Notes under the pieces: generated by a model
Database searches by the model: none
What the model saw: only the letters and a program-made list of their open reading frames with translations
Told to the model about the DNA's origin: nothing
Program-made: the position numbers and the translations under genes
Assembly (NCBI GenBank): GCA_044892505.1
Contig: CM097882.1
Coordinates: 196,974,001-197,038,000, forward strand
Direction: 5' to 3'
Source of the DNA: Schmidtea nova
Lineage: Eukaryota
Length of the DNA stretch: 64,000 nucleotides
Shown here: piece by piece, positions 20,643-57,900 of the stretch
Numbering within the stretch: position 1 is the stretch's first letter
Layout of the letters: each line of letters opens with the position of its first letter

Positions 20643-20924
20643 ACAATCACAATTGTGAATGTCATATTTTACGGTCTAATTTATTTTATGATTAGAGATA
20701 TTCGTGTATTATGTTTTAAGCGCCGTCATTGTTATGGACGGCGCCCTTGCGGTCACCGGGGTCCCCCTCTTTTTCTTGTGAAGGATAATATTTATTATTA
20801 TTATTATTATTATTATTAACCTAAAACGAATTTTAAATTCGAAATTCGAATTTGGCTTGCTATAGCAAACGCTATAGTAAGCCAAATCGACAGAAATAAA
20901 AAAATCGATATTTAAAAATAGAGT

Positions 20925-21130
20925 AATTATCTGAATAATCTGAAGAATAATCTGAATAATAGAAGAATAATCTGAATAATCTGAATAAAGAATAATCTGA
21001 AGAATAATCTGAATAATAGAAGAATAATCTGAATAATCTGAATAGAAGGATAATCTGAAGAATAATCTGAATAATAGAAGAATAATCTGAATAATCTGAA
21101 TAGAAGAATAATCTGAAGAATTATCTGAAC
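20925..21130. repeat. GAATAATCT-based minisatellite within the 5' LTR (expanded copy at ~25275-25540 in the 3' LTR)
   Basis: Tandem tctgaataatagaagaataa units; accounts for most of the 855 vs 948 bp LTR length difference. Confidence 0.9.
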
Positions 21131-21547
21131 AATAACATTATCGTTCTCAGGTCAAGTCCCCCTCTATAAAATATATCGATATCAACCGATAAACAATTCC
21201 AGAAAGAGCAAGCAACGATTATCAGAATAATAACATTATTGTACTTGAGACAAGTTCACTCTATTCTAATATAAGTTATCAGCAGTCCTTTGATTCACCT
21301 ACCCTTAGCCAGCCTCAAAATATTGTACAGGTTCAATTTGCCTTTAGTATCGCAAGATAACCGGAATGTCCAAGGCCGAACAACCAATATATAGACAATA
21401 GTAAAGTAATATTTTCGTGGTTTTTCGGGTTATTTTTACTTAATAAAACTTATTTAATTAATTGAGTTATTCAGTAGTTTTTTATATTTTATATTCAGTA
21501 TTTGTACATTTTACTCAACGCAATCAATTACACAGCAAACACCCCGA

Positions 21548-24500
21548 GTGTCCCAACAATTAATAGGAGACTCTCTCGGGCCCTACAACATTTCTCTGCA
21601 CACACCAGTGATAGCACCCACATCAGGTGACAAAAACAACACATTTTGGGTGCACAGTAATAACATAGATTTTTTAATAGACACCGGCTCGGTGATTTCA
21701 TTACTGCCCCATTTTATGTATAAAAGTGCCAACAAAACAGAAAAACCATTAACAGCAGCTAACGGCACAAACATAAAAACCTCCGGGCAACAAACAATAA
21801 ACGTAACCATAAATAAAAAGAACTACAACTGGACATTCACTATAGCCGAGGTCCAACAAGCGATAATAGGAGCAGACTTCCTAACAAATTACAACCTCTT
21901 AGTTGATTGCAAAAACAAGCAAATACTAGAAAATACTAACGGTACAACTCGACAACGCAACACGAGCAGTGGACAAAGACATTGGCGTCGTTACAACAAA
22001 CATAAAAAACAAACCAAACCGGAATAAAAACATACCAGAAATCGACAAAATTCTGGAACGATTCAAGGAATTAACGGAACCCGTCCAATTCAACGACGAC
22101 ACAGAAAAAACAACCGAACACGCCATAATCACAAACGGAAATCCAGAGTACGCAAAAGTAAGACCACTGGACCCCAAAAAGATAGAAATCACAAAAAACA
22201 TTTTCAGCGAACTGTTAGAAAATAACATAGTAAAACATTCCAACTCTGAATGGTCTTCAGCATTGATGCTTAAACAAAAAGCAAATGGTGAATGGAGAGC
22301 CTGCGGCGATTACAGACTATTAAACAAAATAACAGAACCAGGCAGCTACCCATTACCTATAATTAAAGACATCATAAATAGATTAAACGGCGCAAAATAC
22401 TTCTCAAAAATAGATCTACAAAAAGCATACCACCAGATCCCAATTAGAAAAGAGGACGTCAAAAAGACAGCAATAACAACCCCAATCGGAATGTTCGAAT
22501 ACAACCGAATGCCTTTCGGTTTACGAAATGCGGCGGCAACATTCAAACGATTCATGGACCAAACGATGAAAAACAACAAAAACACAATAGCTTACCTGGA
22601 TGACATCCTAATATCAAGCCCAGACAAAACAACTCATCTAAAAGATGTAGAAACGGTGTTCGAAACACTGAACAAAGCAAAACTCAAAATAAACATACAA
22701 AAATGCGAATTCATGAGAAATGAAATAAATTTTCTGGGACACACACTAAACGACAAAGGAACACAGCCAATCGAAAACAAAATTAACAATATAAAAAACT
22801 ACAAACTACCAACAACCACAAGAGAGTTGAGCAGATTTCTAGGAATGGTAAACTTCTACCATTCGTACATCCCAAACTGCAGTAAATTACTAGCACCATT
22901 AAATGACATTATCACAACAAAGTGAAATGTCACAATAAACTGGACTCATCAAACAACCGAAGCATTCGAGAAAGCCAAAGAAAGTCTTTCAACGGCAACA
23001 CTACTCGGATATCCTGATCCAGAAATAGAATACCAATTAACTACAGACTGCTCAGGTTTTGCAATGGGTGCAACAATTTTCCAGGAAAACAAATTCGGAA
23101 AACAACCACTAGGTTTCTTCTCTAAAAAGCTAAAGTCACACCAAACAAGATATTCGACTTTTGACAGAGAACTACTAGCAATACATGATTCAATCAAACA
23201 CTTTCAACATCTACTCGAAGGGCGAACTTTCAAAATATTCACCGACCACAAACCGCTAACAAACGCAATTGAAATGAAAAATCCTTCGCCAAGACAGATC
23301 AGACAAATCAACTTCATTTCACAATTCAATTGTACAATAAACTATGTAGCGGGAAAATCAAACATAGCAGCAGACGCCTTTTCCAGAACCGAAAGTGACA
23401 TAAATTCCTTAGAATTCGGTGAAATGATTAATTTGTATCAAATCAAACCCAAACAAAACGAAACATTAAGGAAACTGCCTACTAAACACAGCCTAAAACT
23501 CCAGGAACTTAACGGAGTATGGTACGATGTATCCAACGAAAGCAACAGACGAATTCTTCTACGTGAAGAATTCCGCCAAAAATGCATCGAAAAGATCCAC
23601 TCCATTAATCATCCGGGAAACAAAACGACTTTCGAATTAATTCACAACAATTATATATGGCCCGACATGAGGAAAGAGATAAAAAAGTTTGTCAAAAGCT
23701 GCCATAATTGCCAAATAAGCAAACCGACAAAGAAAATTAAAACAGAAAAAGTAAACTTCCCAAGTAGTCAACCCTTCGAGGTGATTCACATAGACATAGT
23801 AGGACCGTTACCACCGAACAACGGGTACAACTACTTACTAACAATCATCGACAGAAAGACAAACTGGTTTGAAATCGTCCCAATAAAAGAAATATCCGCT
23901 CAAAATATATGTAACAACATCGAACTGAATTGGATAGCTCGCTACGGACAACCCAAAATACTAATAACAGATCAAGGGAGGCAATTTGAATCAGAATTAT
24001 TCAGCGCCCTATGTAAAAAATATGAAATAAAACGAAATCGAACAACCGCTTACAACCCTCAAGTGAATGGAAAAGTCGAAAGACTGCATAGAACGCTTAA
24101 ACAAAGCATCCGAACCAAAGCGAATCACAGAAATTGGTTGTCTGAACTACCGACAATATTGCTGGGACTAAGGAACACACCAAACTCAATAGACAACGAA
24201 AGTCCAGCATGCAAAGTGTTTGGCAGAGAATCAAACCTCCCAACAATTAAAAACAATACAACAGAAAACGCAAAAACCAACAAACAACCAAACGACACAA
24301 ACAACGAAAAAATAGAAAAGAAATTAAATGGAATCCTAAAAAAGAGAGCGAACTCTGAAATGGACGGAAAAGTAGTTCTAACGACAGACTACGTATTAAT
24401 CAAAAAGCCCTTCACCAAAGTTTTCGAACCAAAATACGAAGGCCCATTCAAATTGCTAGAAATTAATAAAAATGTGGCAACAATAATAAAAGACAACATC

Positions 24501-24644
24501 AAAACAAGAATAAATCTTAGAAGCATTAAACCATACCACAACAATCAAAACACTCCAAACAACCCCACAAAAGAAAAAGCCCCGCCACAAACAAAAACAC
24601 AAACAAAACATAAACACATCACATTCAACTCCAAAACTCGATAA
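21548..24644 (+). pseudogene. Gypsy pol (protease, RT, RNase H, integrase) with a PR/RT frameshift and an in-frame TGA at 22923-22925
   Basis: LIDTGS; YLDDILI; TTDCSGFAMGA...ELLAI...TDHKPL; HHCC zinc finger; IHIDIVGP, TDQGRQF, VERLHR. Confidence 0.92.
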
Positions 24645-25915
24645 AACTGTTCTACAAGGACACAATAATCACAACCCTTTACAAAAAACGCTATAGCGAT
24701 TGCCTCAAATAAAAATACACAAGCAAAACACAGGCACCACATAGTCATCATTTGTACAGATTTTTATTTTTCTATGTAAATATGTAATTTATGTTGTTAA
24801 CTTGTAATCAAACAAACAAAACATAACAAAAACAATACAAAACAAAAAAAAAGGTTTTATGCTACTGTTATTATAAAACAATGTAAATTTTGAGTAATTT
24901 GTAAAAGGGTTCAAATATAAATGTTAATTTTTATTCTTTTGTTAACCTCCGGTTTTAAAGGGGGAAGTTATGTGAATGTCATATTTTACGGTCTAATTTA
25001 TTTTATGATTAGAGATATTCGTGTATTATGTTGTAAGCGCCGTCATTGTTATGGACGGCGCCCTTGCGGTCACCGGGGGCCCCCTTTTTCTTGTGAAGGG
25101 TAATATTTATTTTTATTATTATTATTATTATTTTTTATTTTTATTATTTATTTTTATTATTATTATTAACCTAAAACGAATTTTAAATTCGAAATTCGAA
25201 TTTGGCTTGCTATAGCAAACGCTATAGTAACCCAAATCGACAGAAATTAAAAAATCGATATTTAAAAATAGAGTTATTATCTGAATAATCTGAAGAATAA
25301 TCTGAATAATAGAAGAATAATCTGAATAATAGAAGAATAATCTGAATAATAGAAGAATAATCTGAATAATAGAAGAATAATCTGAATAATCTGAATAGAA
25401 GAATAATCTGAAGAATAATCTGAAGAATAATCTGAATAATAGAAGAATAATCTGAATAATCTGAATAGAAGGATAATCTGAATAATAGAAGAATAATCTG
25501 AATAATCTGAATAGAAGAATAATCTGAAGAATAATCTGAACAATAACATTATCGTTCTCAGGTCAAGTCCCCCTTTATAAAATATATCGATATCAACCGA
25601 TAAACAATTCCAGAAAGAGCAAGCAACGATTATCAGAATAATAACATTATTGTACTTGAGACAAGTTCACTCTATTCTAATATAAGTTATCAGCAGTCCT
25701 TTGATTCGCCTACCCTTAGCCAGCCTCAAAATATTGTACAGGTTCAATTTGCCTTTAGTATCGCAAGATAACCGGAAGGTCCAAGGCCGAACAACCAATA
25801 TATAGACAATAGTAAAGTAATATTTTCGTGGTTTTTCGGGTTATTTTTACTTAATAAAACTTGTTTAATTAATTGAGTTATTCAGTAGTTTTTATATTTT
25901 ATATTCAGTAATTGT

Positions 25916-27373: not shown

Positions 27374-30300
27374 CTTTATCTAAGGATACACAATTTCAAG
27401 TAAAAGTTAAATCGGAGCATGATTATAATAAAAATACTTAGCGTTTCCATTTCTACGATGTTGTAACATCATATATACTTATTATAGTTACCTTTCACTT
27501 TATTTTTAATCATTTGTTTTACTTTTATTAATTTTCCTATTTTATTCACCATCTCTTATTCCTTTTTCAAACTTCATATCTCTCTCATCAATAATGTTGG
27601 TTCATTTTGTTTCATTTGTTTCTATTCAGTTAAATATTTATTTTATTATTTTTACCTCAATAATGGTAATATTTTTATCTTTTATTTTAGATTTTAGGTA
27701 TTGTGGTCTCATTCAAATTTTTATTCTCCAATATTTCTGAGAAAGATGATTAAATATCATATCATTCATTGTACGGTTATCTTTACTATAACACACATAT
27801 CATGTTTTATCTAGTCTGAAATCTTGCTTTTAATTTTCGTATTTGTATTAATATTATTTTTAAGATAATTATTATTAAATACATTACTATTGTTTACATT
27901 TATTTATTTCCTTAAAAGACTTATATTTTGTATTTGAAAACGTGTTGTATTCAAATATTTGTAAATTTTTGTCAATGTATAGTAGTAGTCTGTGACCCTA
28001 TAAGTTGCATGTAAATTCCACCCCCTAGAAAATAGGTCACTTGTCTCTTTGGCTACCGAGTGGTTGCTATGGTGACCATGAAAAAAAGGACAAATTTTTG
28101 CTCAGGGTCAAAAAGCAAATTAAGGGCAGTTTACTGTCAAAATTTATGCAAATTAACTTCAATTTTATAAAAATTTAAGCTGGACAATTAAAATTTAATA
28201 AAAAGTAAGTAAGGTTATATAATATTTACGAGGTTAAATTAAATAGTTTCAAAAATTAGATAGGTTATGTGTTGGGCAAAAACTTAAATTTTATTACTAT
28301 TTGTTTAAATGGCGCGATAACTCTAAAATCTAAACACGCGTAATAAGTTTATTTAACGTCAAATATAGACGCTGTACTGCCCCCGTCATATATATCTTTA
28401 TACTGTAATATAATAAATATATACATATATATTAAATTAAAAATATGCTTATATATTGCAAACAAATCAGAGTTGTTTATATGCTTATTTTGTATTTGAT
28501 CTTTTACCCGAATAAGACAAATACAGAACGGGATACAGAAAACCAGAGCTCTACAGACGCCTTCTAAATCCCTTAAATTACTAATTTAAGAGGAACACAA
28601 ATAATAGTGAAATAATACAGAATTTGCACGAATAAGCACGAAATTTATATAGAAACTAACACGAAAACCCCTTGCGTACAATGTAAAGATTAAAATTGAA
28701 TTTTAGATTAAAATTTTTCATTTGCAGAAAATAAATTGGAACAAAGTAGAAATTAATAAAATTATAAAATTATTGATTATGTTAATAGAATTATTGGCGG
28801 AAATAAAATTTAAAAAGAAAAATAGTAACATAATGAAAACATTTAATACGCCATAAGAGTTGTTTTAATGTAATTACGTCAAGGTCATACAACATATAGT
28901 ATATATATATATATACCAATAGAAAAACACTGAGCATCCTTATAGCACTATTTATAGAAATCGCCACCTTAAATTTGAAGTAAGTTTTTTTGTTTTAGGC
29001 TTCAGTCGGTGATGTTTGGACTAGTAGCCATATTTTTATGTTGATGTAACCGATTTGTCCAGGACGATATCCTCGTCAAGTATTGTTTTAATATATTAAA
29101 CCTTTCATGTTTTCAGAATATTGTTTGAGACTCCAATTTGAGTTAAATTACTCATATTTGAAATACATAGCAAGATATAAAATCTTTTACATATTACCCG
29201 TCATAGTTCATCGAATGATAGTACGTCAGCTTGAGAGAATCTTTGTGCTCCATGGAAAGGTAGTATTCGGTAGCGGTGTATTGTCGGTGAACGATCATCT
29301 TTGACCAAACGGAATGCGAGGTCGACACTGAAACGATCGGAAAGGTTTTAAAACAACTTAATTACTCATATTAAATCTGCATTTTGAGAGAAGCTTACTG
29401 TGACATGTTTTTAGGCGCTTTCGTGAGCCGAATCATAGTATAACCCAAAAATCATGGAGACAATGTATGTCTTATAGAAAGCAACCGAAACGAGAGTCGG
29501 GAGTGAACCATTGTGTTTTATATTATATATAGAGTAATGAGTTGAAGTTCGACTAATTGAATTCACTTCATTATCTGAAGTTCACAATACTATCACCAAA
29601 GTAAAGTTCACCAAGAGTCGGATCGCGAAATTCATTATTATAATAAATCTTCTACTTCTCGCCCTCAATCACACTAATTGAACTACGCGCAAGATGAAAT
29701 AAAACTAAACTACAAACGATTTAATATTATATTGTATAAATATAAATCAGGACATAGACGATTTTTATTAAAAGACTTTATATGACCTTAAAATTAGTAA
29801 AGTGGCCTCTTAACTAAAAAAACTACGTTGACAACCACAAACAAAGGGGCTTCACTAAGAAATTAACATATTCATCATGCATTTTTGGAATCGAAAAAGA
29901 ATAAATAAAAGAATGAAAGTAGGTAGTTAATGGCCCTTAAACTCACTTAAATTCTACCCACCCCCCACCCCCCTAGAAAATTTTTTTTCTGAGTTTACGG
30001 GCCACTATGTTTTTTCTGGCCATTTTTGTATTGGAAATTTATTGTCGGTCTTTTGTACAGGTGCGTTAGCGGGCCATTATGTTTTTGGGTCGATCTTTTG
30101 TATTGGAAAACTTTTCTCGGTCTTTTGTACAGGGATTTTTAGCTCCGAGATTTTTCTCGGGTAAAAAGGGACTCTAGTAATGTGAGAGTTGAAATGACAC
30201 AATATTTAAAATTTAATAAAAAAAAGGGTAAAATTAATTTTTTGGAGAAATCAGAGTTGGTAAATTTTTAAATATAAAATGAAATTCTTTTTTCACAAAA

Positions 30301-30442
30301 TTCTTTTTTAAACCAATAAAAGTCTTAACTAATAAAAAAAAATTTTTAACTAATAAAAAGAAACATTTTTAACTAATAACAATTCAAATAAATAAAAAAA
30401 AACATTTTTAACTAAATTTTATTAAAATAAATACAAATTTTA

Positions 30443-33400
30443 TTAAAATAAATCTTCTTCATCGTCTTCTTCTGTAACTTGATTGAATTCTCTGTCATTA
30501 GTGTCTTTATAATGCCCGTATGCACAACTTTCATTTTTTCCCACCCAAACCCTTTTATCATCATTATTAGTTAGTGCAATTTTTGAATTTTTAAAGCTAT
30601 ATAACTGATGATTTTTTGTACCTATTCTAAATTGTGGTACACTAATCTCTGAGTTATTTAAATAACATTTTACATATGAATCGTGGTCTATTTTAGTATC
30701 CTTTAATGTTGCTCCCTTAGCTTTGTAGTATTAGTTTTACCCAACAAGCTGTAACATTTCGGTCTAAGGAAAATCCACTCATCATATCCTTCACCCTTAC
30801 TTTCATCTTTGAATTTCCCAATAACAGAATCCAATTTCTTGCTGTATAGTGGGTGATCAGTTGGATAATTTGATGTATCTAACAAGTTATCATTTTTCAT
30901 TTCATTTAATAATATTTCTAATTTTAGATTTTTAATTTCTAGAAAAAACGAATCTGTATCGCCTGCTACGATATTTATCTGACAACTATATTTGTCGCGA
31001 TATTTTTGTAAATCTTTGTATTGTAATTCGTACATTCGAAGTTTTGATAAATCAAGCACCGATTGTCCAATATAACTCGGTCTATCTAAACAAATCGAAT
31101 CTGGATTTAATAAAGCAGCAACTAAATTATCGTCGATTTTAATAGATTTTTTGAAAGAAGGTTTTGATGTATATTTAACTAGTTTTTTCTCCGTTGAACA
31201 TAATCTTAAATTCATTCTCCTTTTAAGATTTTCCACTGTTTTGCCATACAGACTATTATTGAGTAATTTGAAAAAGTTTTTATCTAAAGTATTAGTACTT
31301 TTCGCCCGCAATTCAGTATTGGTGTCTATATACTTTTTGAAAATTGGAGATTGTTTAAATTTAACTGCTCTATTTATCTTTGTGACTTTAACACCAAGTC
31401 CTAAATATAATTGAAGTAATCGCCAATGAATTATATAATTATTTTTAGGGTAATGAGTCAATAGTAATTTTTCTACTTTTGAACCTCGTGGTTTCATTTT
31501 TTCTGCAGCTACCGGGAAATCAACCAAGAAATCATGAATTTCAGCAGGTATTTCCAAATCTACCTCTAAAGTGTAACCGTAAGATATAGATTCAAGATTT
31601 AGATTAATACAGTCATGCAAAATATTATCTAAATTATCAGTCACCCAACTAAATTCTCCACAAGGTAAAGGTTCACTTAAAGCCCATCCGTAAAGATTAT
31701 TTATATCGATATACAATAATTCTGTATTTTCATCGGTTTTAACGAAGTGTTTATTTACAAAAGTCAAACCTCCTCGAATTCCCCCTTCATAAAAGCTAAA
31801 CATTTCATTTTCTGTTATTAATTCTATTGGTTCATCTAAAGTCATTAAAGAAGATGACCAAGACATGCCAGGAATACCGAAGTAATTCAATGGCTCTAAT
31901 CTATTGTGAGCTATAGATTTGGTTCGAAATTGCTGAAAGAAATCAGCCAAAAGAAAGCAATCAAGTTTCAAGTAAGTCATCATATAATCTAAAAGAGTAA
32001 CACAGTTTGTTTCTGTCCAAATCAGTTGTGCCTTTTCATATTCTTCTTTTGAAACACCTTTCCAGATTGGTGGTAACTCATAAGTATTTTCAAGTACTTC
32101 TAAACTTATAGCAAAGCTATACGGAAAAATCCCCTTTTCAGAAACTATAGTTCCATTAAAAAGCGAATTTGTCAAAGGTAAAGATTTCAACGTTTTCACT
32201 GCCTTTACCAAAGAATCATTCACAAACTGGTATGAGTCTATAAATTTTAAACTAATCTTGCCAACATGAGCTATCAATGAAATAAATTTTTCAGTTGTAA
32301 TAGGTATACAACCCAATGACCAATTCTTGAACTTATTTAATCCGTGTTTAAGAATATGGTGCATATCATATCCTTTCAAGTTATGAAAAACTATTGGTAA
32401 AGACTTGTTGATTTTTCTATTAATGTTACACGTTTGACATGCTGCACCTAAATATTTCCCAGTGAAATGGTCATGGTCTCTTACAGGATCTACGATATTT
32501 TTCATGCAAAGGTAACAAGTGGTAGCATTTTTAAATTGATCCTCTTCAATTTCAGTCAATCTATTCATTGGTTTGTTTCCATTTTTATTGTAATATGAAA
32601 GAACTTTTAATAAAGCAATATCTTCAATCGCTTTTAAAAATTCATCTACACAATTTAGTCCAATAAATTGTTGGTAAGATTTTGTCCCATCAAAGTTATT
32701 TATTAACAAAAGCCCCGCAGAAATAGGCAAGTGTTTCTGATAATATACATCATCCTTTGGTAAAATTGATTCAAAGTCTGCATAAATAACGAATGGTGGG
32801 GTAACAGTTTTTGACCAATCTGTAAATTTTAGCATTTTATTTTCCGGGAAAGTGTATAATGTTGTTCCTAGTTGATTTTTTCTGCATAAAATCTCATGTT
32901 TTTCAAACGATAATTTATTTGGGAAACCATTTAAACATCTACTGCACCATTCGCTTCTTATCCTAGTAGTACAATAAATGCTTTGGTGACAATTCATTAA
33001 ACGTTTTAAATTTATAATAGATACATAATGATATTTTTCCCCTTCATTTAATAACAATAAATTTATAGTTTTTCCTTCTATTACTTTGGACCGATGAATA
33101 ATATCCAAATGAGGATGCTTTAAAATATAATCATCTTGCTCTTCATTAATTTCATTATTATAACATAGTACATTTATGATCAATCCTGGATTCTTTGCCT
33201 CGAATTTTCTGATACTATTTAATTTCATGGGCATGTCTGATATATCATATTTGAGCTCTGACAAAAAATTTGTATATTTTGATACTCTTTCTTTATTTCT
33301 AGATATTAAATCATATTTTAATATAGCTAAAATGCTATATAAAAAACATAAATTATCCTTATTATCGATGTTTAATATACATCTCTTTCCTTTTAATCCT

Positions 33401-34580
33401 TGAGGAGTTTTTACAATGCTTCTACCTGCTAACCTACTTATATTGGATATCTTAGTTACAACAAAACTTATTTCAGTAATACGATTAAGTACCCAACTGC
33501 TACCTAATTCCGAAAATGAAGTTATCTTTTCATTCAATTTTTTTAATTCCCTCTTCGAAAAATGTCTGTGTCAGAGGTTTTGCACTATTGGAAATATTGT
33601 TTCTTTTAATTTCTCCATCTTTCTCAAATTCAACACAGATACCAAATTGTATCTTCACATAGCCTATTTCGTTAATTATTTCTATTAATTTATTAATTAA
33701 TGATTGTGGAAAAATAATTTGCTTTATATTTAAATCACTAGTGTTAATTTTTAAAATCCTATGCGATCCATTTAAATCACTTTCAATGACAGGGAGAGGT
33801 TCTATAACACTTCCTCCAGTTTGATAAAATCCAACGTTCCAAAAATCTTCAATCTCTTCCACCGCTTCAATTAAAATCTTGTTTTCATCTGCTTCATCCG
33901 CTTCCATCGCTTCTAATAAAATCTTGTCTTTAATCTCTTCTTGTAAATTTTGTGATTTCTTGATTATTTCTATGTTCAATTTAATCTTTTTATTATTTAT
34001 AGGGTTTTGAGTCAAGTTTGGTCTTTTAAATAATTTTATTTTCTTAGACCTATATTCATTTAAATGATCCTTATGTTCATCGTAAAAATTTTTATATGTA
34101 AAGGGTTGGGAAGTTTGGCATACGGGACATATATAATAGCGAATTTTATAATAAGAGTGTCCATAATATTGCTCCATTGATCGATGACAATTATCGTTGT
34201 GGTCAGTTGAAAAGCAATAATTTGGGTATAAAGCACCTATGAATGTAAAGTAAAGATTATTTAAATTATTACAAAATATTACCAAAATTATATATTTACA
34301 AATATTTTACTAAAGTTATTTACTAAATTAATTAAAATAATTATCAAAATATAATTAAAATTAATTAAAATTAATCAATACTTACATTGAACATTCAATA
34401 CCACATCAGGTATAACTCCATTATTCATAATATTCTCAATATTAACTTTCTCAGCTTGTACGGTAGTTTGTTCAGTCATATCTACATCACCTAAAGTAAA
34501 AGTTAAATAATTTACTAATTTAATGATTAAATACCATTTTCTTCCGCATTTTCGTTCATAAAACTTGTTATCATGTTCAT
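30443..34580 (-). pseudogene. Protein-primed DNA polymerase B (Polinton pPolB) with two predicted 5' introns and two single-base frameshifts (~33535, ~30725)
   Basis: ExoI YADFES, ExoII FHNLKGYD, ExoIII YLKLDC, PolA YIDINNLYG, PolB KLLNNSLYGK, PolC AGDTDS, EndoVII-like CYLC..RDHDH..AACQTCN. KAKG...DDKR C-terminus is in a shifted frame. Confidence 0.92.
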
Positions 34581-35124
34581 TTTTTAATGTTTATTGTTTG
34601 TTAAAGTGAATAATGAATGAAAAAGTATTGTTTATATATCAAAGTTATTACACACACATAACCTTTGACCAATAAAAATCGAGTAAGGGGTAGGAAATTT
34701 ATTCTTATCAGCCAATCAGATTCGAGTAAGAGGCAGTAAAGGTATTATTATCATCAGATAGAGAATTATGACTAATTATATATTACGTTGCAGTATTTTA
34801 AAAAAACTAGAAAAGTTATTTCAACAAATTATAATACACAACAAAGTTATAAAATATTTCAATGAATTGCATGCAATGAATTGTCATATGATTAAATTAT
34901 ATTAGACTAAATATTTCAGTAAATTACGTCTAAATTATATTACATTTCAATAATTACGTCAGTTATAAAAAATATTTTAATTAATTTTGATAAAATACAT
35001 TAGAATTGTCAATAACACACACAAAACCTTTATAATTTTCATTAGTATATGATAGAAATTAAATTATATCTACACATGATTACAATAAATATTCGATAAA
35101 TCTATGCTAAATAGTCGAAAAATC

Positions 35125-36240
35125 CCAGTATTTTATTACAAAACACGTGTGCATCACAAACATATCAATATACTTAATTTTGAATCAAGCCACTTTATAG
35201 ATATTTAAATTTTATCTATATGTAATTACAATGAAAACTCACTAAAGTTATTTTAAATAACTAAAACTTACAAAATTAATTACAAAACACGTGTGTAACA
35301 CGAAAAACGACAACATTTAGATTTTAAATCAAGCCATTTTATAGGAAATTAAATTTTACATATACTTTATTACAATGAAAAGTCAATAAATTTATTTTAT
35401 ATACATGAAAAATGCAAAATTAATTACAAAACACGTGTGTAACACCAAAAAACGTCAACTTTTAGATTTTGAATCAAGCCATTTTAAAGGAAATTAAATT
35501 TTACATATACTTTATTACAATGAAAAGTCAATAAATTTATTTTATATACACGAAAAATGCAAAATTAATTACAAAACACGTGTGTAATACAAACACACTA
35601 ACAAACTAATTTTCTAATCAAGCCATTTTATAGGAAATTAAATTTTACTTATACTTTATTACAATGAAAACTCAATAAATTTATTTTATATACACAAAAA
35701 ATGCAAAATTAATTACAAAACACGTGTGTATTACAAAATACGACAACTTTCAGATTTCTAATAAAGCCATTTTGTAGACATTTAAATTTTACACATAATA
35801 TTACAAGGAAAACTCAAAAAAGTTATTTTATATACATGAAAAATGTAAAATTAATTACAAAACACGTGTGCATTACAAACACACCAACAAACTAATTTTC
35901 TAATCAAGCCATTTTATAGGAAATTAAATTTTACTTATACTTTATTACAATGAAAAATACATAAAGTTACTTTATATTGTTAAAAATTTGAAAATTCAAA
36001 ATAAAACACGTGTGCATCACAAAATACGACAAATTTCAGAATTCTAATAAAGCCATTTTGTAGACAATTAAATTTTATCTATATAATATTTGAATGAAAA
36101 CTCAAAAAAGTTATTTTATTTAGGTGAAATATACAAATTTAATGACAAAACACGTGTGCACAACAACATACACAACATTTTGAATTTTTAATTCAGCCAT
36201 TTTGTAGACAATAAAATTCTGTCTATCTATTGTTTCACTA
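35125..36240. repeat. ~145-bp tandem array, 8 units, each with AAACACGTGTG
   Basis: CACGTG cores recur at ~35143, 35288, 35433, 35577, 35722, 35863, 36007, 36151. Confidence 0.9.
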
Positions 36241-36727
36241 AAAACTCGATCGGGCCGGTTTATCGACTCGAAAAAGGCGTTTGAAGTCTTGTAGTAGGAG
36301 GATGTGAGCGGTCTGCCCCCCCCATGTGTGAACTCATATATTTTTTTATTAAATTTAAAATAAAATTTCATATTTAAAAAAAAATTAAAACAAAAAAGTC
36401 ATATGATTAAAACAAATAGTCCATTTAATTTAAACAAAAATTCACTTAATTTAAACAAAAATTCACATAATTTAAACAAAAAATTCACTCAATTTTAAAA
36501 ATATACGAAATTACGTAATTATACATGGAATTACATAATTATCGGGTTTTATTAAGCACACTTTATCACGTAATGATTACGTAATCACGCGTGCTACATA
36601 AATCCCCGAGCGATTACGTAATATACACACATGGGGGGGTAGTGGCGCAGACTCCTCATAGCCTCCTACTACAAGACTTCAAACGCCTTTTTCGAGTCGA
36701 TAAACCGGCCCGATCGAGTTTTTAGTG
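36236..36727. mobile_element. 492-bp inverted-repeat element (66-bp perfect, ~95-bp imperfect TIR beginning CACTAAAAACTCG)
   Basis: cactaaaaactcg...gtagtaggagg and its exact reverse complement at the right end. No matching TSD. Confidence 0.7.
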
Positions 36728-37590
36728 ATTAAAAGCTCAAGTGAACAAAGACAAAAATCAAGACAATTTTGAGAGAAACAGAATCAAACAAATAAATCTG
36801 AGTAAAGCGATAAGACCATTGTTTAACTAGGAGTAGCAGCTATTTACCAAGTGAATAGATATATAGACGAATGGAGCCATGAAAGAGTATAAGGTTCGAA
36901 AACAAAGACTATGGAAAGCTGAAAGAAGAAAAAAACAATTTCGGAAAATAGCCAAAATTGCAATTGTAATGGAAAAATTAAATAAACACTATTTTAGTTT
37001 CCGTTTTCATTTTCTTTTTATAGTAACTATTTCAGTTTTCCATTATTGAGTTATTATAACAGAATGTGTATGGTTGAATTCTCTACCCGTTTTCATTGAA
37101 GCAGAACATTAATGAATTAGAAAAGTAGATAAAATAGGCCTGAGGGTTACAAGTAAAGGCAGATAATAACAATTTTAGAATTTTATGATTTTCTGCAAGG
37201 TAATAATGAATAAAGCTGAAGTTAAATACATGATGAAGGGAGCAGAATTGAGATTACCATAACCTTCTGCTGGGTCTACGATTTGACCATCATTTGAATA
37301 AATAAATAATAATAGATAAAACAAAAATAACTATTGTAAAACAAATACTACAAGAAGAGATTTAAATGGAATGAATTGAATTAATAAGACAAGAAATAAA
37401 TGGTGTAATAAAAATAATAAAAAGACATATAAAAATGTAATAAGAAATGAGATTTAAATGTAATAAAATGTTTGGCAATTGAAATAAATAATTAATTAAG
37501 AAAATATTTAACAAAATTACGATCATTTAAAACAAAAAAATTAAATCTATCTATTTTTAAATAAATTATATTTTGGATCATCAGCTTCAC

Positions 37591-37640: not shown

Positions 37641-38847
37641 CTAATGATTTATATGATTTATGCGATTTTTGTTTTGAGCAAATTTTGAGCAGAAATTTAG
37701 TTAGAAGGTATGTCTGATCTTTTATTTTATTTGTATTAGTATTATGATATCTGTCATTATATTTCTATGAACCTAAATTTTCGTTTTAACTATTGTTATG
37801 ATTTTTACAATTTATGATTTACTTGCGCTCCTTCTACTGTGTAATCGGTGGAAGGAGGCGAAATGAATTATTTTTATTATGTTTAATGATTTGAGGGGGC
37901 TCCTTTCCACTGTGTAATCGGTGGAAGGAGGCAGACTTCGCCTGAGTGGAACAACTACTCCGTAAAGTTAGGCCGTCTTCATGGTATTAAGTGTCATGAA
38001 GAGGGTAGGACTTTAATACTGAATTTTAATTAATACTGGCAAGTATAGCCAAATACCTATTATGTTTCATTAACAATTTATAAAAAATATTTTATTCAAC
38101 GCATTTAAAAACATCCATTCGGCATTGTACATAGGACATTTGGAGCGCAGGGTTGCCAACATTGGTTAAAAGAGGATTGAATACTAAATACCATCCTTCA
38201 GAGTTTCTGGAGGCAGGAAAAGGCTAGATTGCAGCCATCTGTTATATATAAATCACCCGAACATAAAGAGGTGGAGATAAAATGAGTTGCTGAAAACATC
38301 CAGGGAAATATTGTGCCCGCATCAACAAATATAGCCATAAAGTGTAATTTCACCTGAGAGAGCTACGTCATCATGGGAATGAAAATCGTTTGGTCTTCTG
38401 GAAATCCGGCTAAGGAAGAGTACGAAAGTTGAAAAGAAAGATAACTTGAGAAACCCCTCACTATTAATAGTCCAATCTGTCTATTACTGCTTAACACCAG
38501 ACTCAGAACTCTTGTGGAGACCCAGATTTTTCATTGATTTTACGGCAAGCATCATTTTTTAAAGATAACCGCTCATTTTTGGNNNNNNNNNNNNNNNNNN
38601 NNNNNNNNNNNNNNNNNNNNNNNNNNNNNNNNNNNNNNNNNNNNNNNNNNNNNNNNNNNNNNNNNNNNNNNNNNNNNNNNNNNNNNNNNNNNNNNNNNNN
38701 NNNNNNNNNNNNNNNNNNNNNNNNCAAAGACCAAATGTGAAGCAGTTCAGAGTATATTGCGTAATTCAATCACTGTGTTAGTTATTGCGTAATATACATA
38801 ACTATTTAAGAGTGATCACTCGGTGTTTTTAGTAAATAAATCTTTAG

Positions 38848-40050
38848 ATGGAACCGATTGTTGTAACTGGCGACCACGCCGAAAATATTCACACAATGAC
38901 GACTCGAGGAGAAGGGAAAAAATCTGCAAGAGACGTACTATCAAAACGTGCTCAAGAACTCTTGGATATGGAAATTAGAAGATACGACGGCAGATGTACC
39001 AAAGAAGCTGAAAAATGGATACATGCAATTGATGATTGGATCGCTAGAAATGACTTAAAGAGGACAGAAGCATTCGATTTTCTCCTTTGCGACGAAGCGG
39101 CTACGCTGTGGAAAAATTTCAAAACAGAAAAAACAACAGATAAAGCAGCTAAAGAATGGTTTTCCGAAACATTTACTATTAAATTGACTATTTTAGACAA
39201 GATTAAAGAACTTGCTGCAATTAGACAAGATGAAAATGAAAGATATGCAACCTTCGAAATCCGGGTATTAAAATTAGTGGATGAAGTTATTAATTCAGGA
39301 ATGAGGGTAGAGGAAATTGCCAATGAAATTATAACTGGACGAGTCAGAGACAGAAGATTAAAAGATGCGCTAACAATGAAACCAACGATGACCACAGAAG
39401 AACGAAATCAACTGGCCAAAATTTAGGAAAAAGTGGAATCAAAAGAAAAGACGGAAGAAATTATGGTAATAAAAAAGAGTAGTTACGCAGAAGCAACAAG
39501 GAGAAGGAATCCAGAAACGTTTACCAGAGAAACAAATGGAAGTAATGGCAATATATTAAGAATCCAAGGAAATTACAGAAGAGAGAATTTACCAGATAAT
39601 TCTTATAGCAGAAATAACGAAATAAATAATACAGTCGAACGGAATATGCAGAGAAGGACACCAACGGTTTCGCTTAAACACATCGCCAAGAGATTATACA
39701 ATCGATCTAGAGGCCTTCCTGATCCAAGAAACGTCGAATTACAGTCAGGTCAATGTTTTTGCTGTGGAGAATATGGGCATAGAAGATATGAATGCCCACT
39801 AAAAGATAAATGTTTGATATGTGGTAAGGGAGGACATAATTTTCGTGATTGTTATTTATTAAGAAAGAAAGAACAGCAGAACTATGAGAACAAGAAAATT
39901 ATATCTTGTGTGCATGATGAAGAAAACGGAAGAAATTACTCCGATGATGCAGAAACCAGAGAATCAATTAGTGATTATGTAATTCATGATGTGGAAACTG
40001 AAAAAAACACGAGGAACTCTATTGCATACATTTCGTCAATGGGGTTGTAA
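38848..40050 (+). pseudogene. Gypsy gag with two CCHC knuckles; in-frame TAG at 39424-39426
   Basis: CFCCGEYGHRRYEC and CLICGKGGHNFRDC; both ORF-track pieces are in the same frame. Confidence 0.85.
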
Positions 40051-40082
40051 AGAAAGAAAATCGGAATGACAGAGCAGAAGGA

Positions 40083-43000
40083 ATGAGGTATGTAACATCA
40101 GATGGAAGAGAATGGAGCAAGATGATGATAAATGATGTTGAGATTGAGATGTTGTGGGATTCTGGAGCTTCGATTACAGTGATGAATGAGGAAACGTGGA
40201 ATAAAATTGGTAGTCCACGGTTAAGCAGTAGTGAAATCAAAATATGTGGAGTTTTTCCAGGAACTCAAAAACCACTGGGATGTACAGAAGCAAATGTTTA
40301 TTGGCACAATAAGATGAGGAGTATCAAAATAATTGTTATTAAAAATATTTTTCCAGGTTTTATTGGTGGGGTAGATACTTTGAAAGCATTTGGAGTGCAG
40401 TTGATGGAAATTAACAATATTGAATCCGAGACAAAAATTAGTAATTATACTGATGAGGAGAGAAGACAAAAAGCAAAAAATGAATTGGGAAAAAATGAAT
40501 TGCCGACAATTAACAAATTATTAGATGAATTCGGGTCAATATTTATGGCAGCTAGATTTGATTTAGGATTCACAAGAATCGTTGAACATGAAATTAATAC
40601 ATCTGGGAATCCAACAATGCAATTTCCAAGACGACAACCGATGCATCTAGAACAGAAAATTGACGATATGATAAAAGAGTTAACAAAAGCTGGAGTTATA
40701 AGACGCTGTAAAAGTCCATGGAGCTCCCCATTAGTCGTAGTGGGGAAGAAAGACGGCTCAATAAGAATGTGCGTAGACTATCGAGAGCTGAATAAGATAA
40801 CAGAAAGAGAATCTTTCCCTATGCCCAACATATCTCAATTACTCGATAACCTATCAGGATCTAAATACTTTTCTTCTTTAGATCTTGGACAAGCATACTA
40901 TCAGGTAGCATTAGCAAAAGAAGCGCAAGAGAAAACGGCTTTTAGTTCCAAAGAAGGTCAATTTTGTTTCAATCGACTTCCGTATGGACTATCAACGGCT
41001 CCAGCAACGTTTCAGCGATTAATGCACACGATGTTAGAGGGTATATTGTTTAATGGAGCAATTGTTTATTTAGACGATATTCTTGTATATGGCAAGGATC
41101 AGTCTGAACATGATGAGCGATTACGAGAAGTTTTTAAAAGAATACAAAAAACAGGACTAAGAATAAATCCGGAGAAGTGCGAAATTTACAAAACAAAATT
41201 AAAATTCCTTGGTTATACCATCAGTGAAGATGGAATACAGACAAATTCAGAGAAGATCAAGTCAATTACAGAAGCGACGAAACCGCAGTGTGCTAAACAA
41301 CTTCAATCATTTCTGGGTTTGACAAATTATTATAGACGATTTGTTAAAGATTATGCTAAAATAGCAGCACCCTTACATGCAGCAGCTTCAGGTTGTGATA
41401 AAACAATCAAATGGTCAGAAAATTGTGAAAACAGTTTTAGTCAGCTTAAAGAAGCCTTAACACAAGCTCCTATTCTTGATTTCCCTCGTATAGATCGGAA
41501 ATTTATTTTGGATACTGATGCCAGTTTTGAGGCTATTGGAGCAGTTTTGAGTCAAATAAAAGAAGACGGTTCAGAAATAGTTATCACATACGGTTCAAGA
41601 AATCTGACGGCCCATGAAAAGGGATACTGCGTAACCAGGAAAGAATTATTAGCGTTACATGAATATGTTTTATATTTTAGACAGTATTTATACGGGAAAG
41701 AATTCGTGGCCCGAACAGATCACAAGGCTTTAGTATTTATGAACACAAACAAAAAAGCAATAAGTCCACAATTTCAGACATGGATGGCTAATCTATCGGA
41801 ATATGACTTCCAATTGAAATACCGGAAAGGTGAAGAACATGCAAACGCAGATGGATTATCAAGGATCGGGGGTAGTTTGTGTGCACAATGTCAGACAGCA
41901 CATGTACAACATAAACAAGAAAGATCAAGGGTAAGATACATCAATTTGATACAAAAAACACATACAATGTTGGAGATTATGGAAGAACAGAAGAAAGATA
42001 AATTGTTCCAGGACGCGATGGAAATTCTTAGGAATCAGATAGATGTTCGAAAGGAATCGTTTCAAAATAGTTTTTTATTCAGATATAAAGATCAGTTAAA
42101 GATATCGGATGATATGCTTGTATTGGAAAAGGACAAAATAGATCTAGTGGTAATCCCAGAAAGCTATCAATCTAAATTAGTGATTAAAATACATGAAGAT
42201 TTATGTCATGTTGGAACTAAGAAACTGTTTCATTATTTGGAAGGGAATTTTTTCTGGCCGAAAATGCAAGAAACCGTTAAATAGATAGTAAAACGATGTG
42301 TCACTTGTGCAAGAAGGAAAATAGACCAAGGAAAGACAAAGGAAATTTTAATTCCACACGAAAGTTCTGAATTTCTAGAACAGATTGTTATGGATGTTGC
42401 TGTCATGGAGAGAACTTCAACAGACAAAAGGTATGTTATCGTTATTATTGATAGGTTTAGTAAATTAGTAAGTCTAACGGCTACAGCAAACCAAGATGAA
42501 AAAACTATTTTGAAGACGCTAATGAACAATTGGATTTACAAATATGGTAAACCTCAAAGTATATTGACGGACAGAGGGCGAAATTTTGAAAGCAAATATT
42601 TGAAGGAAAAATTAGAGCAGCTGGGAATAAAGCAAGAATTCGCAACGCCGTATCAACATCAGTCGAATGGCCTAGTGGAAAGAGCTATCAGAACAATGAG
42701 GGATTTACTTGTGACTACGATGAAAGGTGGCTGTGCTGAAAAACAGTGGCACGAACTGCTGCCTCGAATTGAATTCAGTATTAACGCAACTTATCAAAGT
42801 GCTACAAAATTTTCACCATTTGAGATAGTATATGGACGGAAAATAACATTACATGCTAATTCTAGGCTCAAACATCAAATACGAGATATTTCAGAAGAAG
42901 CACAAACGAATAACAAGCAAGCTGCTCAAAAGATGAGGAAATTCGAGGATGACAAAAGAATTAAACGACATTTTGAAGTGGGGGAGGAGGTACTAGTACG

Positions 43001-43154
43001 ACGAGAACCACATAGAAGAAACAAAAATGATATTCAATATGATGGTCCATATAAAATTCTTAGATTTGTGTCAGATCACCAAGTTGAATTGCAATATCCA
43101 AATACAACGCGACACCGACGAATCGAATGGTTAAAGAGATGGAATCAATTTTAA
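40083..43154 (+). pseudogene. Gypsy pol (PR-RT-RH-IN); -1 frameshift site AAAAAAC at 40002-40008; in-frame TAG at 42282-42284
   Basis: LWDSGAS, YLDDILV, LDTDAS...ELLAL...TDHKAL, IHEDLCH..CVTC, IVMD/TDRGRNF/VER. Confidence 0.92.
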
Positions 43155-46100
43155 GAAGGGGAGAGTAATGATATTGCAATAAAGGCCAAAGACCAAATGT
43201 GAAGCAGTTCAGAGTATATTGCGTAATTCAATCACTGTGTTAGTTATTGCGTAATATACATAACTATTTAAGAGTGATCACTCGGTGTTTTTAGTAAATA
43301 AATCTTTANNNNNNNNNNNNNNNNNNNNNNNNNNNNNNNNNNNNNNNNNNNNNNNNNNNNNNNNNNNNNNNNNNNNNNNNNNNNNNNNNNNNNNNNNNNN
43401 NNNNNNNNNNNNNNNNNNNNNNNNNNNNNNNNNNNNNNNNNNNNNNNNNNNNNNNNNNNNNNNNNNNNNNNNNNNNNNNNNNNNNNNNNNNNNNNNNNNN
43501 NNNNNNNNNNNNNNNNNNNNNNNNNNNNNNNNNNNNNNNNNNNNNNNNNNNNNNNNNNNNNNNNNNNNNNNNNNNNNNNNNNNNNNNNNNNNNNNNNNNN
43601 NNNNNNNNNNNNNNNNNNNNNNNNNNNNNNNNNNNNNNNNNNNNNNNNNNNNNNNNNNNNNNNCGTCTAAATAATACTATAAATTATAAAAATAAAATAG
43701 ATAATTAATAAGACTAAAAAGAAATAAAATACAAATATTTATTGTCATAAATCTTCATCATCATCTTCATCTTCGTCATCTTCTTGAACTTCATCATCAT
43801 CTTCATCATCATCATCTTCGGTAAATGAATCCCCCATAACTGTAAAACTTTCCCTACAATGTCCATAAGCAATACTTTTATTTTTCTCAACCCAAAGTCT
43901 CTTATCATCGAGGTTTGTAAGTGAAATTTTTGAAAACTTATTAGTAAAAATTTGATGATTTTTACTCACAAATCGAGACTGTTAGACTGAAACTATATTA
44001 TTATTTCTATAACAATCAAGATAAGACCGATGCTTCAGTTTAGTATCTTTCAAACAGACGCCTTTAGCATTTAAACATTCCTTATCACCTAAAAGGCTAT
44101 AAAATTTAGGTCTAAGAAAATTCCATTTCTTATATTTATGATACTTATTTTCGTCTTTAAACTTTCCTATAACCGAATCAAGTTTTTTCGAATATAAAGA
44201 ATGACTAGGCTCGTAATTCGATGTATCCAAAAGACAATCTCTAACCATCGCAGGAAACAGAACATCTAACCTACAATTCTTAATCTCTAAGAAGAAAGAA
44301 TCAGTATCGCCTGCAACTATATTAATCTCACAGTTGAATTCATTGCGATATTTTTGCAATTCTTCATACTGGAGTTGATACATCTTAAGTTTCGATAAAT
44401 CTAAAACTGATTGACCTATATAACTCGGTCTGTCTAAACACACAGAGTCTTTATTTAAAAGAACAGAAATCAAGTCATCATCTATCCCATAAGTTTTCCT
44501 GAAAGTTGGTTTCGATGAATAAGTAATCAGTTTCGACGCAGAGTTGCATAGCCTTAAATTTAATCTTTTCTTAAGGTTTTCGACAGTTTTTCCGTAAAGA
44601 CTGTTATTTAACAGCTTATAAAAATCCTTATCTAAAACAAACGATGAAGCTGCCCTAAGTCGTGTATTAGTATCTATATAATCTTTAAATATAGATTTCT
44701 GCTTATATTGAACAGCTCTATGAATCTTTGTTATTTTAACTCCTTAAGAAAGAAATAGTTTTAAAAGTCTCCAACGAAGAACATAATTCTTCTTTGGATA
44801 ATGTGTCAACATTAACTTTTCAACTTTAGATCCTGGAGCACACATTCTTTCTGCCGCTACTGGAAAGTCATTTAATTTGTCGTGAATTTCAACCGGGATT
44901 TCCAAGTCAACTTCAAATGTTACACCGATTGTTAAAACCTCTAAGTCAGCATCCATCAAATTAATTAATTAAATTTATTCTCATCAGTGATCCATTTAAA
45001 TTTACCACAAGGTAACTTTTGGCTTAAGGCCCAACCGTACAAATTATTAATGTCGATGTATAGTAGTTCAGTCGTTTCGGAGGATACTACGTGATGTTTG
45101 TTGACAAATGTCAAACCACCACGGATCCTCCCTTCGAAAAAATTATACATCTCCATATCCTGGAGCAATTCAATAGGTTCTTCCAAGGTAATAAGTGCAG
45201 AAGACCACGACATACCTGGAATACCCAAGAAATTCAATGGTTCTAACCTATTATGAGAAATTGACTTGGCTCTAAACTGTTGAAAGAAGTCAGCAAGAAG
45301 AAAGACGTCAAGTTTTAAGTATATCATCACGTAGTCACAAAGAATTTGACAATTAGTTTCCCTCCAAATAACTAAAGCCTTATCGTATTCAGCCTGTTTA
45401 ACACCCTCCCAGATTGGTGGTAATTCATATGTTTCATTCAAGACTTCTAACGATGTCGCAAAATTATAAGGAAAAATACTCTTACAATCAACAATAGTAC
45501 CAGTGAATTTTGATCGCGTTAAAGGTAAAGAAGTCAATGTTTTAACTGCATCATTTAAACTGGAGTTAATAAACTGACAAGAGTTAATGAATTTAATTGT
45601 TAAAACACCGACTCTTGCAGATAAAGTAAGGAATTTTGCACTGGTTGTAGGAATACAAGATATTTTCAAACTACTAAAGTTAGCCAATCCATATTTAAGA
45701 ATATGATGCATGTCATACCCTTTTAAGTTATGAAAAACAATTGGTAGTTCCTTAAGAATCTGTCTAGTAAGATTACATTTCGAACAAGCAGCACCCAAGA
45801 ATTCACCAGTGTAATGGTCATGATCTCTAACCGGATTAACTAAACGATTTTTACAAAGGTAACAAATAGTAGATGAGGCAAAAGATCTTTTATTATCAAA
45901 TGTCATAAGAAGTGGTTTTTTGTAGTTATTTTTATAAAAATGAAAAACAATTTCTTCACCTATATTGCTAATTTCAGAAAGGAACTTAATTACACAATCT
46001 ATACCTAAGAAACTCTTGTATGTTTTTTCACCAGTAAAGTTCTTAACAAGTAAAAGTCCCGCAGATATAGGTACATGTCTCTGAAAATATTTATCATCAG

Positions 46101-49007: not shown

Positions 49008-50417
49008 AATCATAACATGATGTCAGATCTTGGTGTTGATTAAATATTTGCTTGTTTGTTTTTTTTGTTTGTTATTTCCTATGTATTTCCTTCGGTTACA
49101 CAGTTCATAATAATTAAATTTAAATTACATGTCACACAACGAAAGGAGTAGCGTTAAAAATTTTAAATATTATCGAATTCGTAGTTTCTTTTTGTTTGTT
49201 TTGTTTTTTGATAAATACATAAAATCACAAGTACACCGAATAACAACAATTGCGTAAGTCCTTCTACGGCCGCGTAAACCCGTAAACATAAAGGGGGAGT
49301 AGTCCTAGCAATAGTGCTCACCTGCCCCTCATTGTTTAACCACCCTGCGCATCACCAACTTGGTTATCGGGGGAAATAATCAAGGGCGCTCGAGTGTAAC
49401 TTACGACTATTTGTACATGATCATGAAGGGGAGATCTCTAGCAATCATTAGAATTTTTACTAACCCTTCCATGAACCCAGCAATAGTTTTAAAAGCACCA
49501 TCTTTTTCAAACTCTACTTCGATGCAAAATTGTATTTTAACAGTTCCCATTGTTTCAATTACGTTATTTAATTTATTAATTAAATTAACCAGTACAATCA
49601 TTGTTTTTAAATTCAAGTTAGTGACAATCATTTTCACTATAGCATGTGATTTATTTAAATCAAATTTAACAACAGGTCAAAGAGAACCACCAACCTGTAC
49701 TTCAGGAACTAAAGAGTCTATATCTGATAATTTATCGTCATCGTCAGAAATTTCAATAAAATCAGGAAGAGAACCAACAATTTGAATATTGGAATTATCA
49801 ATTGAACCAGGAACAAAAGAGTTCAACCTCAAAATCAGAAAGATTATTTATATCAGGAATGATATCATCATCAGGAATGATATCATCATCGGAAATTATA
49901 ACTATATCTGAAGGAACAACTGAAGTTACACCTGAAAGAACAACTGGAGGAATATCATCAGAAAGAACTGACTTATTAATTTTGATTGGGTTTGGACTAA
50001 AGTCATTACATTTTCTTTTAAGTGGTAATTTTAAAATAGATTTCTTTGATGTTTTAAATTGATCTAAATGCTCGCAATGAGTCTTGTAAAAATCTATATA
50101 TAAAGATGATGAAGTAGATTTGCAAATAGGGCAAATGTAGTAGTTTTTAAAGTTATGAGGGTATGCATAATATCTTTCCATTATTTCATGACATTTTAAA
50201 TCATGAATTGTAGAGTTGCAATAATTTTGATATAAATTACCTATAATTTTAAAAAAATTATAAAAAAATTATGATAAAATAACAATGATGTATATATTAA
50301 GTGTGTATACACACATTCATTTCAAAATATCGTAATATATATTTATTGATATGATTGGTTAAATAAATTCCAAAAGTTCTATATAAACGAATTATAAAAT
50401 TAATATAATCATTAAAA

Positions 50418-50645
50418 ATGTATCAACTGAAAAGTAAGATTAATTAATATTAAATGATTATTTTTAAATTTCTTTTTCTAGAATCGAAAAGAATGACAAA
50501 ACAAGAAATAATGAAGATTATTCTTGAAGAAAATCCTAATTCAACATCTAATTTGGTATTGAATCCACCAGTTCAATTCTTGCAATACTCGATAGAGTAT
50601 TTGAAATACCCGATCAGAACACAGAAGGTAAAATACCGTTTTTAG
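50418..50645 (+). CDS. Small Polinton-2 gene with a predicted 48-nt intron (50434-50481), truncated by the Penelope insertion
   Basis: ATG TAT CAA CTG AAA A|gtaaga...ttctag|AA TCG gives MYQLKKSKRMTKQEIMK... in frame. Confidence 0.4.
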
Positions 50646-56819: not shown

Positions 56820-57900
56820 TCAATTGTTTTTCAGATATCCAACTTGGAGTTTCATAGCCATGCCATTTAACGTAATATTGTTTATATTTCCCATCAGTTT
56901 TGGTTTTTAAAATCTTTTAAATTCAAAATACTGTGGGAGCTGGAATAACTTGAAGTTATTGTTCGTAGAATTTACCCTCGATTACATTGTTTTCATGATC
57001 GGAAATAGTATACATGATAGGATTTTGATTAGTATCAACATTTGAGATTTGATATACTTCATCACTCTAATTACAATCAAAATTTTTGATGAAGGGAGAA
57101 GCACTGATTTTACTCATTCTCACATAATCACCTACTTTATATTTGGGTTTTTTATTAATTGATTTTAATCTATCTTCTATTCACCCATAAAAATTATTAT
57201 TTGAATATACATCGATAGGTTTCATTCTATTTAATCCCGAATGCGGTGAACGATTGTAACTGGAAATAATTTTCGGTAAAACATTTATCCATGTTTTGTT
57301 ACCTTGATACACAAAATACTTTTTCAAACGATCTCTTAAAGTACGATTAAATCTTTCAACATGAGCAACTTTGAATTGAGACAATACAGAATAATGATTG
57401 ATTTCTTTGATCACTTCTTTTACTTTGCTGTTATAAAACTCTTTTCCTAAATTAAAATTAATTAATTAAAAAATTTAATTTAATTTCTTACCCAAATTAG
57501 TTTGTAAATTACGTGGCTTCCCATCTTTAAATAAAGTTTAAATAACATCAGCCATTTCATTAGCAGATTTAGTTTTTGTTGGAATAGCTCGTGCATAACG
57601 GCTAAAAACATCAATACAAGTCAAACTATATTTGTAACCCTTGTTAATTTTAGAATAAGGGATCATTTCCATCAAATCCATTTGCCATAAATCATTACCC
57701 CCAAAAGTTTTATATTTCCGTGTAGGAAATCTTTTCAGCATTGGTTTATTTAAACTATATGCCAATTGATCAGATAACCATTTCTGAGTTTCATTCTTTG
57801 ATCTTTTTATTCTTTTTGCCAATTTTTTGACTGAACCAAAACCATTGGGATCTTTTGGGTTTGTCCATATCGTTTTTATATTCTTCATGATTTTCTTCAT
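56820..57900 (-). pseudogene. Polinton retroviral-type (rve) integrase with C-terminal chromodomain-like segment; 45-nt intron 57447-57491; several stops
   Basis: LWQMDL, CIDVFSRY, spliced LQTNLG|KEFYN, VERFNRTLR, YYVKWHGY..SWI. Confidence 0.88.

Follow-up and report, generated by a model that had tools for sequence, protein, structure and literature searches.

The window, by which we mean the whole 64,000-nucleotide stretch of Schmidtea nova DNA analysed here, carries at 29918..36728 (no strand assigned) one arm and the centre of an element of the family that we call P1, with the Polinton DNA polymerase gene, pPolB, lying on the minus strand. The leader of this gene begins with a TATA-like box at 34630..34638 (-), ~50 nt before the ATG at 34580, to which we ascribe a presumptive promoter function, and boxes resembling it were also noticed in family P3 and before a small gene of the second Polinton of the window (Polinton-2). 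Downstream of the box we predict a 46-nt exon 1 (34535..34580, -), a 44-nt phase-1 intron (34491..34534, -; GT..AG, GC 0.14), a 105-nt exon (34386..34490, -) whose last base, T, is the first base of a split Cys codon, a 149-nt phase-1 last intron (34237..34385, -; GT..AG, GC 0.11) with an acceptor common to five pPolB families, and the main exon (30360..34236, -; lower end approximate), which encodes a Cys/His-rich N-terminal domain followed by the polymerase and is frameshifted in this copy near 33540 and 30720. The frame right after the acceptor at 34237 reads ALYPNYC, each exon is open when read singly from the ATG at 34580 or from that at 34559, and unspliced read-through meets a stop 3 codons into the first intron. 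The segments flanking both introns have a GC content of 0.30-0.36, against the much lower values within them. Both introns had been claimed by a sequence-only reading of this DNA, and both were recovered as in-frame, GC-poor, phase-1 GT-AG introns. Assembled contigs of 4 runs from one study that cover 33900-34640 span exons and introns alike with no joint at either intron, as DNA runs would whether or not splicing occurs.

The two-intron layout of that reading turned out to be incomplete when other copies were surveyed in the genome of 1.25 Gb, where P1 pPolB copies are many. The window lacks 99 nt at 34553/34554 which are carried by 58 of the 59 other aligned P1 loci, the 59th having unrelated upstream DNA, and the deletion junction of the window was found in none of the 59. 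This deletion is in frame, and it accounts for the absence of family intron 1 from the window copy and for its 46-nt exon, which is family exons 1 and 2 fused. In the family, exons of 52, 54 and 105 nt are each followed by an intron, of 43, 44 and 129-155 nt respectively, before the main exon is reached; all three introns are in phase 1, and the 34491..34534 intron of the window corresponds to family intron 2. The ATG at 34580 is kept in the 58 other copies and is the conserved family start, while that at 34559 was rejected as a family start, since it varies among copies. We also rejected the 5' open reading frame as a separate gene; since intact copies read through in one 1270-codon frame, it is the N-terminus of pPolB. 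This stop-to-stop frame, which holds 27 of the best 150 P1 matches (counted by hand), begins 7 codons inside the last intron and has its first Met ~20 codons after the acceptor.

To compare copies we used the 59 other loci and the window, minus the window itself, the one locus whose upstream DNA is foreign, and 12 entries that are second arms or overlap, which left 46 copies. GT/AG conservation was followed across them, as the sequence-only reading had proposed: all six dinucleotides are intact in 37 of the 46, and in no splice column of the 12 do three copies share a variant. The exon lengths 52, 54 and 105 are fixed in 44, 44 and 46 copies, respectively (one dropped second arm has 98 nt in place of 105), and family intron 2 measures 44 nt in all 46, while the last intron occurs in 11 different lengths. 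However, columns with shared variants amount to 19%, 7% and 20% in exons 1-3 vs 5%, 15% and 6.5% in the introns, no third-position excess of variants was seen in these exons among the 46 copies, and private substitutions in the same set were no lower at splice columns than elsewhere. The peptide of exons 1-3 is therefore not visibly constrained, as its variation is at least that of the introns and has no codon-position bias, and since P1 copies are young, conservation within the family has little power.

A motif scan of the collected loci gave five pPolB families, namely P1 (window 34237), P2, which is Polinton-2 (window 50241), P3, P4 and P5, sharing 36-57% amino acid identity over their first ~450 residues. 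In all five, homology begins at the same codon, directly after an AG, and this AG was found in 54 of 59 P1, 29 of 30 P2 and 12 of 12 P3 copies, in all 11 P4 copies found among 12 loci and in 11 of 12 P5 copies. As AG occurs in the last P1 intron at a frequency of only ~0.03 per position, its presence before the same codon in five families exceeds chance. The acceptor that had been claimed for Polinton-2 at 50241/50240 was found as described, in the same position and phase as that at 34237. In P3 and P5 an in-frame stop stands immediately before the N-terminal motif. An open upstream exon ending in T|GT, with a donor selected by eye from a single copy before being scored across the family, was present in 11 of 12 P3 copies (intron 796-831 nt, although the DNA flanking the acceptor is nearly identical), 8 of 11 P4 copies (507-904 nt) and 11 of 12 P5 copies. 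The P3 leader comprises a single coding exon and, in the UTR, a 47-nt intron. In P4, four open phase-1 exons are present in copy L145, of which the first has 52 nt as in P1 and the same codons before the donor; this four-exon layout rests on one copy, because its regular expression matched only 1 of 12 loci. For P2 we propose a candidate first exon of 10 nt (50311..50320, -; ATG, two codons and T), likewise chosen by eye, and a candidate 70-nt phase-1 intron (50241..50310, -) whose acceptor is homologous to that at 34237. Among 30 copies the ATG was found in 28, the T in 29, the GT in 26 and the AG in 29, with all four in 22, but the donor is weak and has a rival 6 nt upstream of it, and the first ATG is missing from one copy whose open frame runs for 1347 codons.

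As the best upstream exon ends in T in each of the five families, splicing would yield a Cys at the junction, where the unspliced reading gives Gly and has no upstream Met. The 234-aa N-terminal ORF gave no homologs among longer proteins; these were found instead by searching the N-terminal 392 residues against 1.84 billion representatives, with homologs taken from ENA and Logan contigs. In alignment A1, made of the five families and 11 homologs that we chose from the 150 listed, and in which the homolog contigs may be transcripts rather than intronless DNA, the junction column holds Cys in 7 of the 8 database rows with a residue there and Lys in one. One homolog, P0012, starts with MNCKIYPNYC, while three database proteins of A1 start later, at a conserved internal Met ~20 codons after the acceptor. 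The domain has the pattern C-x6-C-x4-H-x3/6-C, followed by an invariant C-x2-C and H, from which we infer that it would bind zinc, with the junction Cys as its first cysteine. A structure model of P0012 (pLDDT 71, pTM 0.45; residues 1-20 at 71-74), which cannot show zinc binding, had no match in the PDB at E<=0.001. It did match Drosophila-associated adintovirus 2, in a C2H2-type protein (E 1.9e-6), and weakly the PolB of a MELD virus (E 2.7e-3), with low TM-scores (0.31 and 0.23) and nothing on splicing in these matches.

Predicted introns were also noticed outside pPolB. The integrase gene next to Polinton-2, at 57.1-57.9 kb, which is retroviral-like as is the one beside P4 although its rve match (E 1e-6) stays below the cut-off, has a 45-nt phase-1 intron at 57447..57491 (-) inside the catalytic motif D-x-G | K-E-F, the D being N in this copy. 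An intron of 40-45 nt lies within this motif in all four integrase genes found (window, L066, L118 and L121), whereas the motif is contiguous in all 120 listed homologs out of 179 hits. A small gene of unknown function at 50418-50620 (+), divergent from the Polinton-2 pPolB, has a 48-nt intron at 50434..50481 (+) after its start ATG at 50418, and a second one is visible in copy L032, both being ~45 nt; in the window this gene is interrupted by an element with a GIY-YIG ORF (50834-51466). The pPolB and integrase introns have the traits of the U2 type, with GT..AG ends, a T-rich 3' tract, a host-like size and a frame restored on removal. The window further contains a host Polycomb EED gene at 1536-6220 (-), with E 2.6e-59 to EED structures and a long intron at 5557-2258; one intron of this gene has the same donor hexamer as the 34534 intron, and there is a 45-nt candidate intron besides.

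Elsewhere in the genome, whole P1 copies are head-to-head palindromes of ~13-14 kb with two divergent pPolB genes and arms 97-98% alike. They have AGTAG ends and, in the 4 copies with both ends located out of 6 examined, 6-bp target duplications. The same palindromic form is seen in P3 and P5, with 6-bp duplications in 2 of 2 and 1 of 2 copies, respectively, and as P3 copies are nearly identical (arms 99.2-99.96% alike) they must be very young. Besides the window arm, palindromes lie at L061-L063, L113-L118 and L187-L195. In the window, seven tandem repeats of ~144 nt (35132-36294) stand upstream of the P1 promoter, and an inverted repeat around a ~324-nt spacer (36235-36728) forms the palindrome centre. 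The arms of the P1, P3 and P5 palindromes showed no integrase, ATPase or capsid ORF and no other long ORF of their own, and we file these palindromes as non-autonomous Polinton derivatives, whose 6-bp target duplications suggest integration by a helper integrase. As to Polinton membership, PF03175 scored above cut-off on Polinton-2 pieces and gave no hit on the P1 pPolB; P1 shows polymerase motifs, and its DNA is 71-72% like that of Polinton-2 over two stretches. An ATPase homolog lies in the window at 58.5-59.1 kb, and L121 has Pox_A32 above cut-off and a weak DJR-like domain (E 0.007). No protease was hit by Pfam among the scanned ORFs, and the ends of Polinton-2 were not found within the window.

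Family P5 carries the centre, promoter and exons 1-3 of P1, 94% identical as far as a few bases short of the P1 acceptor, and beyond this joint there follow ~190 nt of a different intron, a pPolB only 43% identical and an element end of its own (L156-L166, L187-L193); one copy has a 1244-codon open frame. The sequences thus present P5 as a chimera, in which the P1 leader would have been swapped in by recombination inside the last intron, and a joint at such a place keeps the frame only after splicing.

Combined together, these observations make it very probable that pPolB starts in short upstream exons which the host splices to the main exon by removal of phase-1 GT-AG introns, building the junction Cys; that the last intron is real is more probable still than this model as a whole. 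Host RNA polymerase II would transcribe the gene from the TATA box at 34638, and the spliceosome would remove three introns in the P1 family and two in the deleted window copy, giving a product with a low-complexity extension of ~70 residues before an N-terminal domain of the form C-x6-C-x4-H-x3/4-C plus C-x2-C..H-x2-H. Failing this, ribosomes would either stop in the first intron or start ~20 residues late, past the first Cys/His motif. The last intron was probably inherited by all five families, with upstream exons that differ from family to family and could be exchanged by recombination inside it.

One might argue that splicing does not take place at all, that translation starts from the internal Met of unspliced RNA and that the GT/AG pattern arose by chance in AT-rich DNA. 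The internal Met is indeed conserved, and the 490-nt 5' region has 15 GT[AG] and 6 [CT]AG sites from which such a pattern could be drawn. But ~20 conserved residues with Cys and His stand upstream of that Met, homology begins exactly at the AG in five families with T|GT restoring the Cys, and the catalytic motif of the integrase is unreadable unless its 40-45-nt intron is removed, so that we regard this explanation as highly improbable. Of somewhat more weight, yet still unlikely in our judgement, is that the last intron alone is real and ancestral, while the two short ones upstream are lineage-specific, partly optional or part of a leader whose peptide is irrelevant. In its favour, exons 1-3 lack amino-acid constraint, leaders vary by family (one coding exon and a UTR intron in P3, possibly a 10-nt exon in P2) and in the window copy an intron was lost in frame; it is harder to reconcile with the exon lengths fixed in nearly all of the 46 P1 copies, with an unspliced reading that stops inside the introns and with the 52-nt first exons of P1 and P4, which have the same codons before the donor.

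The sequence-only reading had further held that the introns were gained before the lineages split. This stands, as the simplest reading and one that we consider probable, for the last intron alone, which would have been gained once before the families separated. A quick tree grouped the five families with two further rows (SH-aLRT 88), while in a careful tree, built with 17 of the quick tree's 36 database rows, P2-P5 were joined (100/98) and P1 was left in a polytomy with P0012 and others that begin M-x-C unbroken; five families as one group appeared in 20% of the bootstrap trees. The polytomy leaves room for a shared acceptor that arose by parallel gains at a favourable site or by recombination between families, and P5 shows that leaders do move between families. 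Yet the same position and phase are found in five families that are as little as 36-57% identical, and the P2-P5 clade and the quick tree also speak for common descent, so that we think parallel gain or transfer rather doubtful and a single gain the simpler reading.

Polinton core genes are generally described as intronless, and Kapitonov and Jurka 2006 are said to agree on this. Reports on vertebrate and nematode elements agree as well: among vertebrate Polintons/Mavericks (Barreat & Katzourakis 2021, PMC8097293) the ORFs of 134 intact elements are given as intronless, with 'no introns', and in nematode Mavericks (Widen et al., 10.1101/2022.07.12.499685) introns are reported in host-derived cargo (wasp, krma) while the core genes are called intronless. 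The general statement, which the sequence-only reading had taken over, would not hold for the pPolB and integrase described here. The vertebrate elements (PMC8097293) share with ours pPolB, terminal repeats and 6-bp target duplications and probably, outside the palindromes, a retroviral-like integrase, an A32-like ATPase and a jelly-roll-like capsid gene; they differ in being intronless, whereas here predicted GT-AG introns occur in pPolB, the integrase and the small gene. The nematode elements (10.1101/2022.07.12.499685) are likewise animal elements with intron-bearing genes, but their introns are in cargo and ours in core genes. Dinoflagellate maverick-polinton-like elements are described (PMC11957031) as having recent insertions of introner transposons, mostly after integration; introns lie inside Polinton-like elements there too, but those predicted here appear fixed, mutually unlike and common to old lineages. 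In the literature covered, which was partial and did not include Repbase reports or subscription papers, neither fixed spliceosomal introns in the core genes of animal Polintons nor polymerase-only palindromes were found described. The predicted introns in core genes contradict the standard description of Polintons, and the putative junction-made Cys, the leader swap and the polymerase-only palindromes are added to it.

A leader of the P2 kind has an analogue in adenoviruses, whose polymerase uses the same small leader exon as pTP. The HAdV-37 report (PMC2397415) has pTP joined from a predicted 9-nt exon, so that the E2B leader would supply the first codons of a protein-primed replication gene from a small upstream exon, as we propose for P2. 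In P1 and P4, on the other hand, the leader exons number three or four, are longer and lie near the gene, and the likeness is one of analogy only.

Since surveys look for ORFs on the assumption that core genes have no introns, clades that do have them would be counted as broken or be given truncated polymerases, of which the three database proteins that start at the internal Met may be examples. Obligate splicing of polymerase and integrase would make these elements dependent on transcription by nuclear RNA polymerase II and on the intron size of the host, which bears on virus vs transposon lifestyle and on reach between hosts. In RT-PCR the splice junction would serve as a simple marker of activity. 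The swap of leaders within an intron is a concise example of exon shuffling by a mobile element, and with the young polymerase-only palindromes the Polinton replication model can be tested from genome data. We would tentatively go further, although we hold it somewhat less probable than its negation, and suggest an animal Polinton clade that depends on the spliceosome in its core genes, in which the first zinc ligand is created at an ancient phase-1 intron that also acts as an exchange joint for promoter-plus-leader cassettes, helping several polymerase-only palindromes of ~14 kb, which have two spliced pPolB genes each but lack an integrase, to spread as a distinct helper-dependent, self-replicating class.

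Some further features were noticed along these elements and their surroundings. An Endonuclease_7-like Cys/His stretch lies inside the P1 and P2 pPolB (window 30703-33570 and 44965-46113) and recalls the HNH insert reported for nematode pPolB2. A TBP-like gene (PF00352 above cut-off) adjoins the Polinton ATPase gene in two elements (59188-59691, +, in the window; 9067-9558 in L121), and a small Cys-rich ORF, which starts like a signal peptide and has no Pfam hit, adjoins Polinton capsid genes (L119 1336-1929, +; L188). The window also has two LTR retrotransposons, at 20654-25767 and 38725-43308, with end repeats 97-100% identical and RT/RNase H/integrase ORFs. Finally, single-exon matches to proteasome subunits number at least 150 in the genome, many with stops and far above a normal gene set, and are perhaps carried by a repeat.
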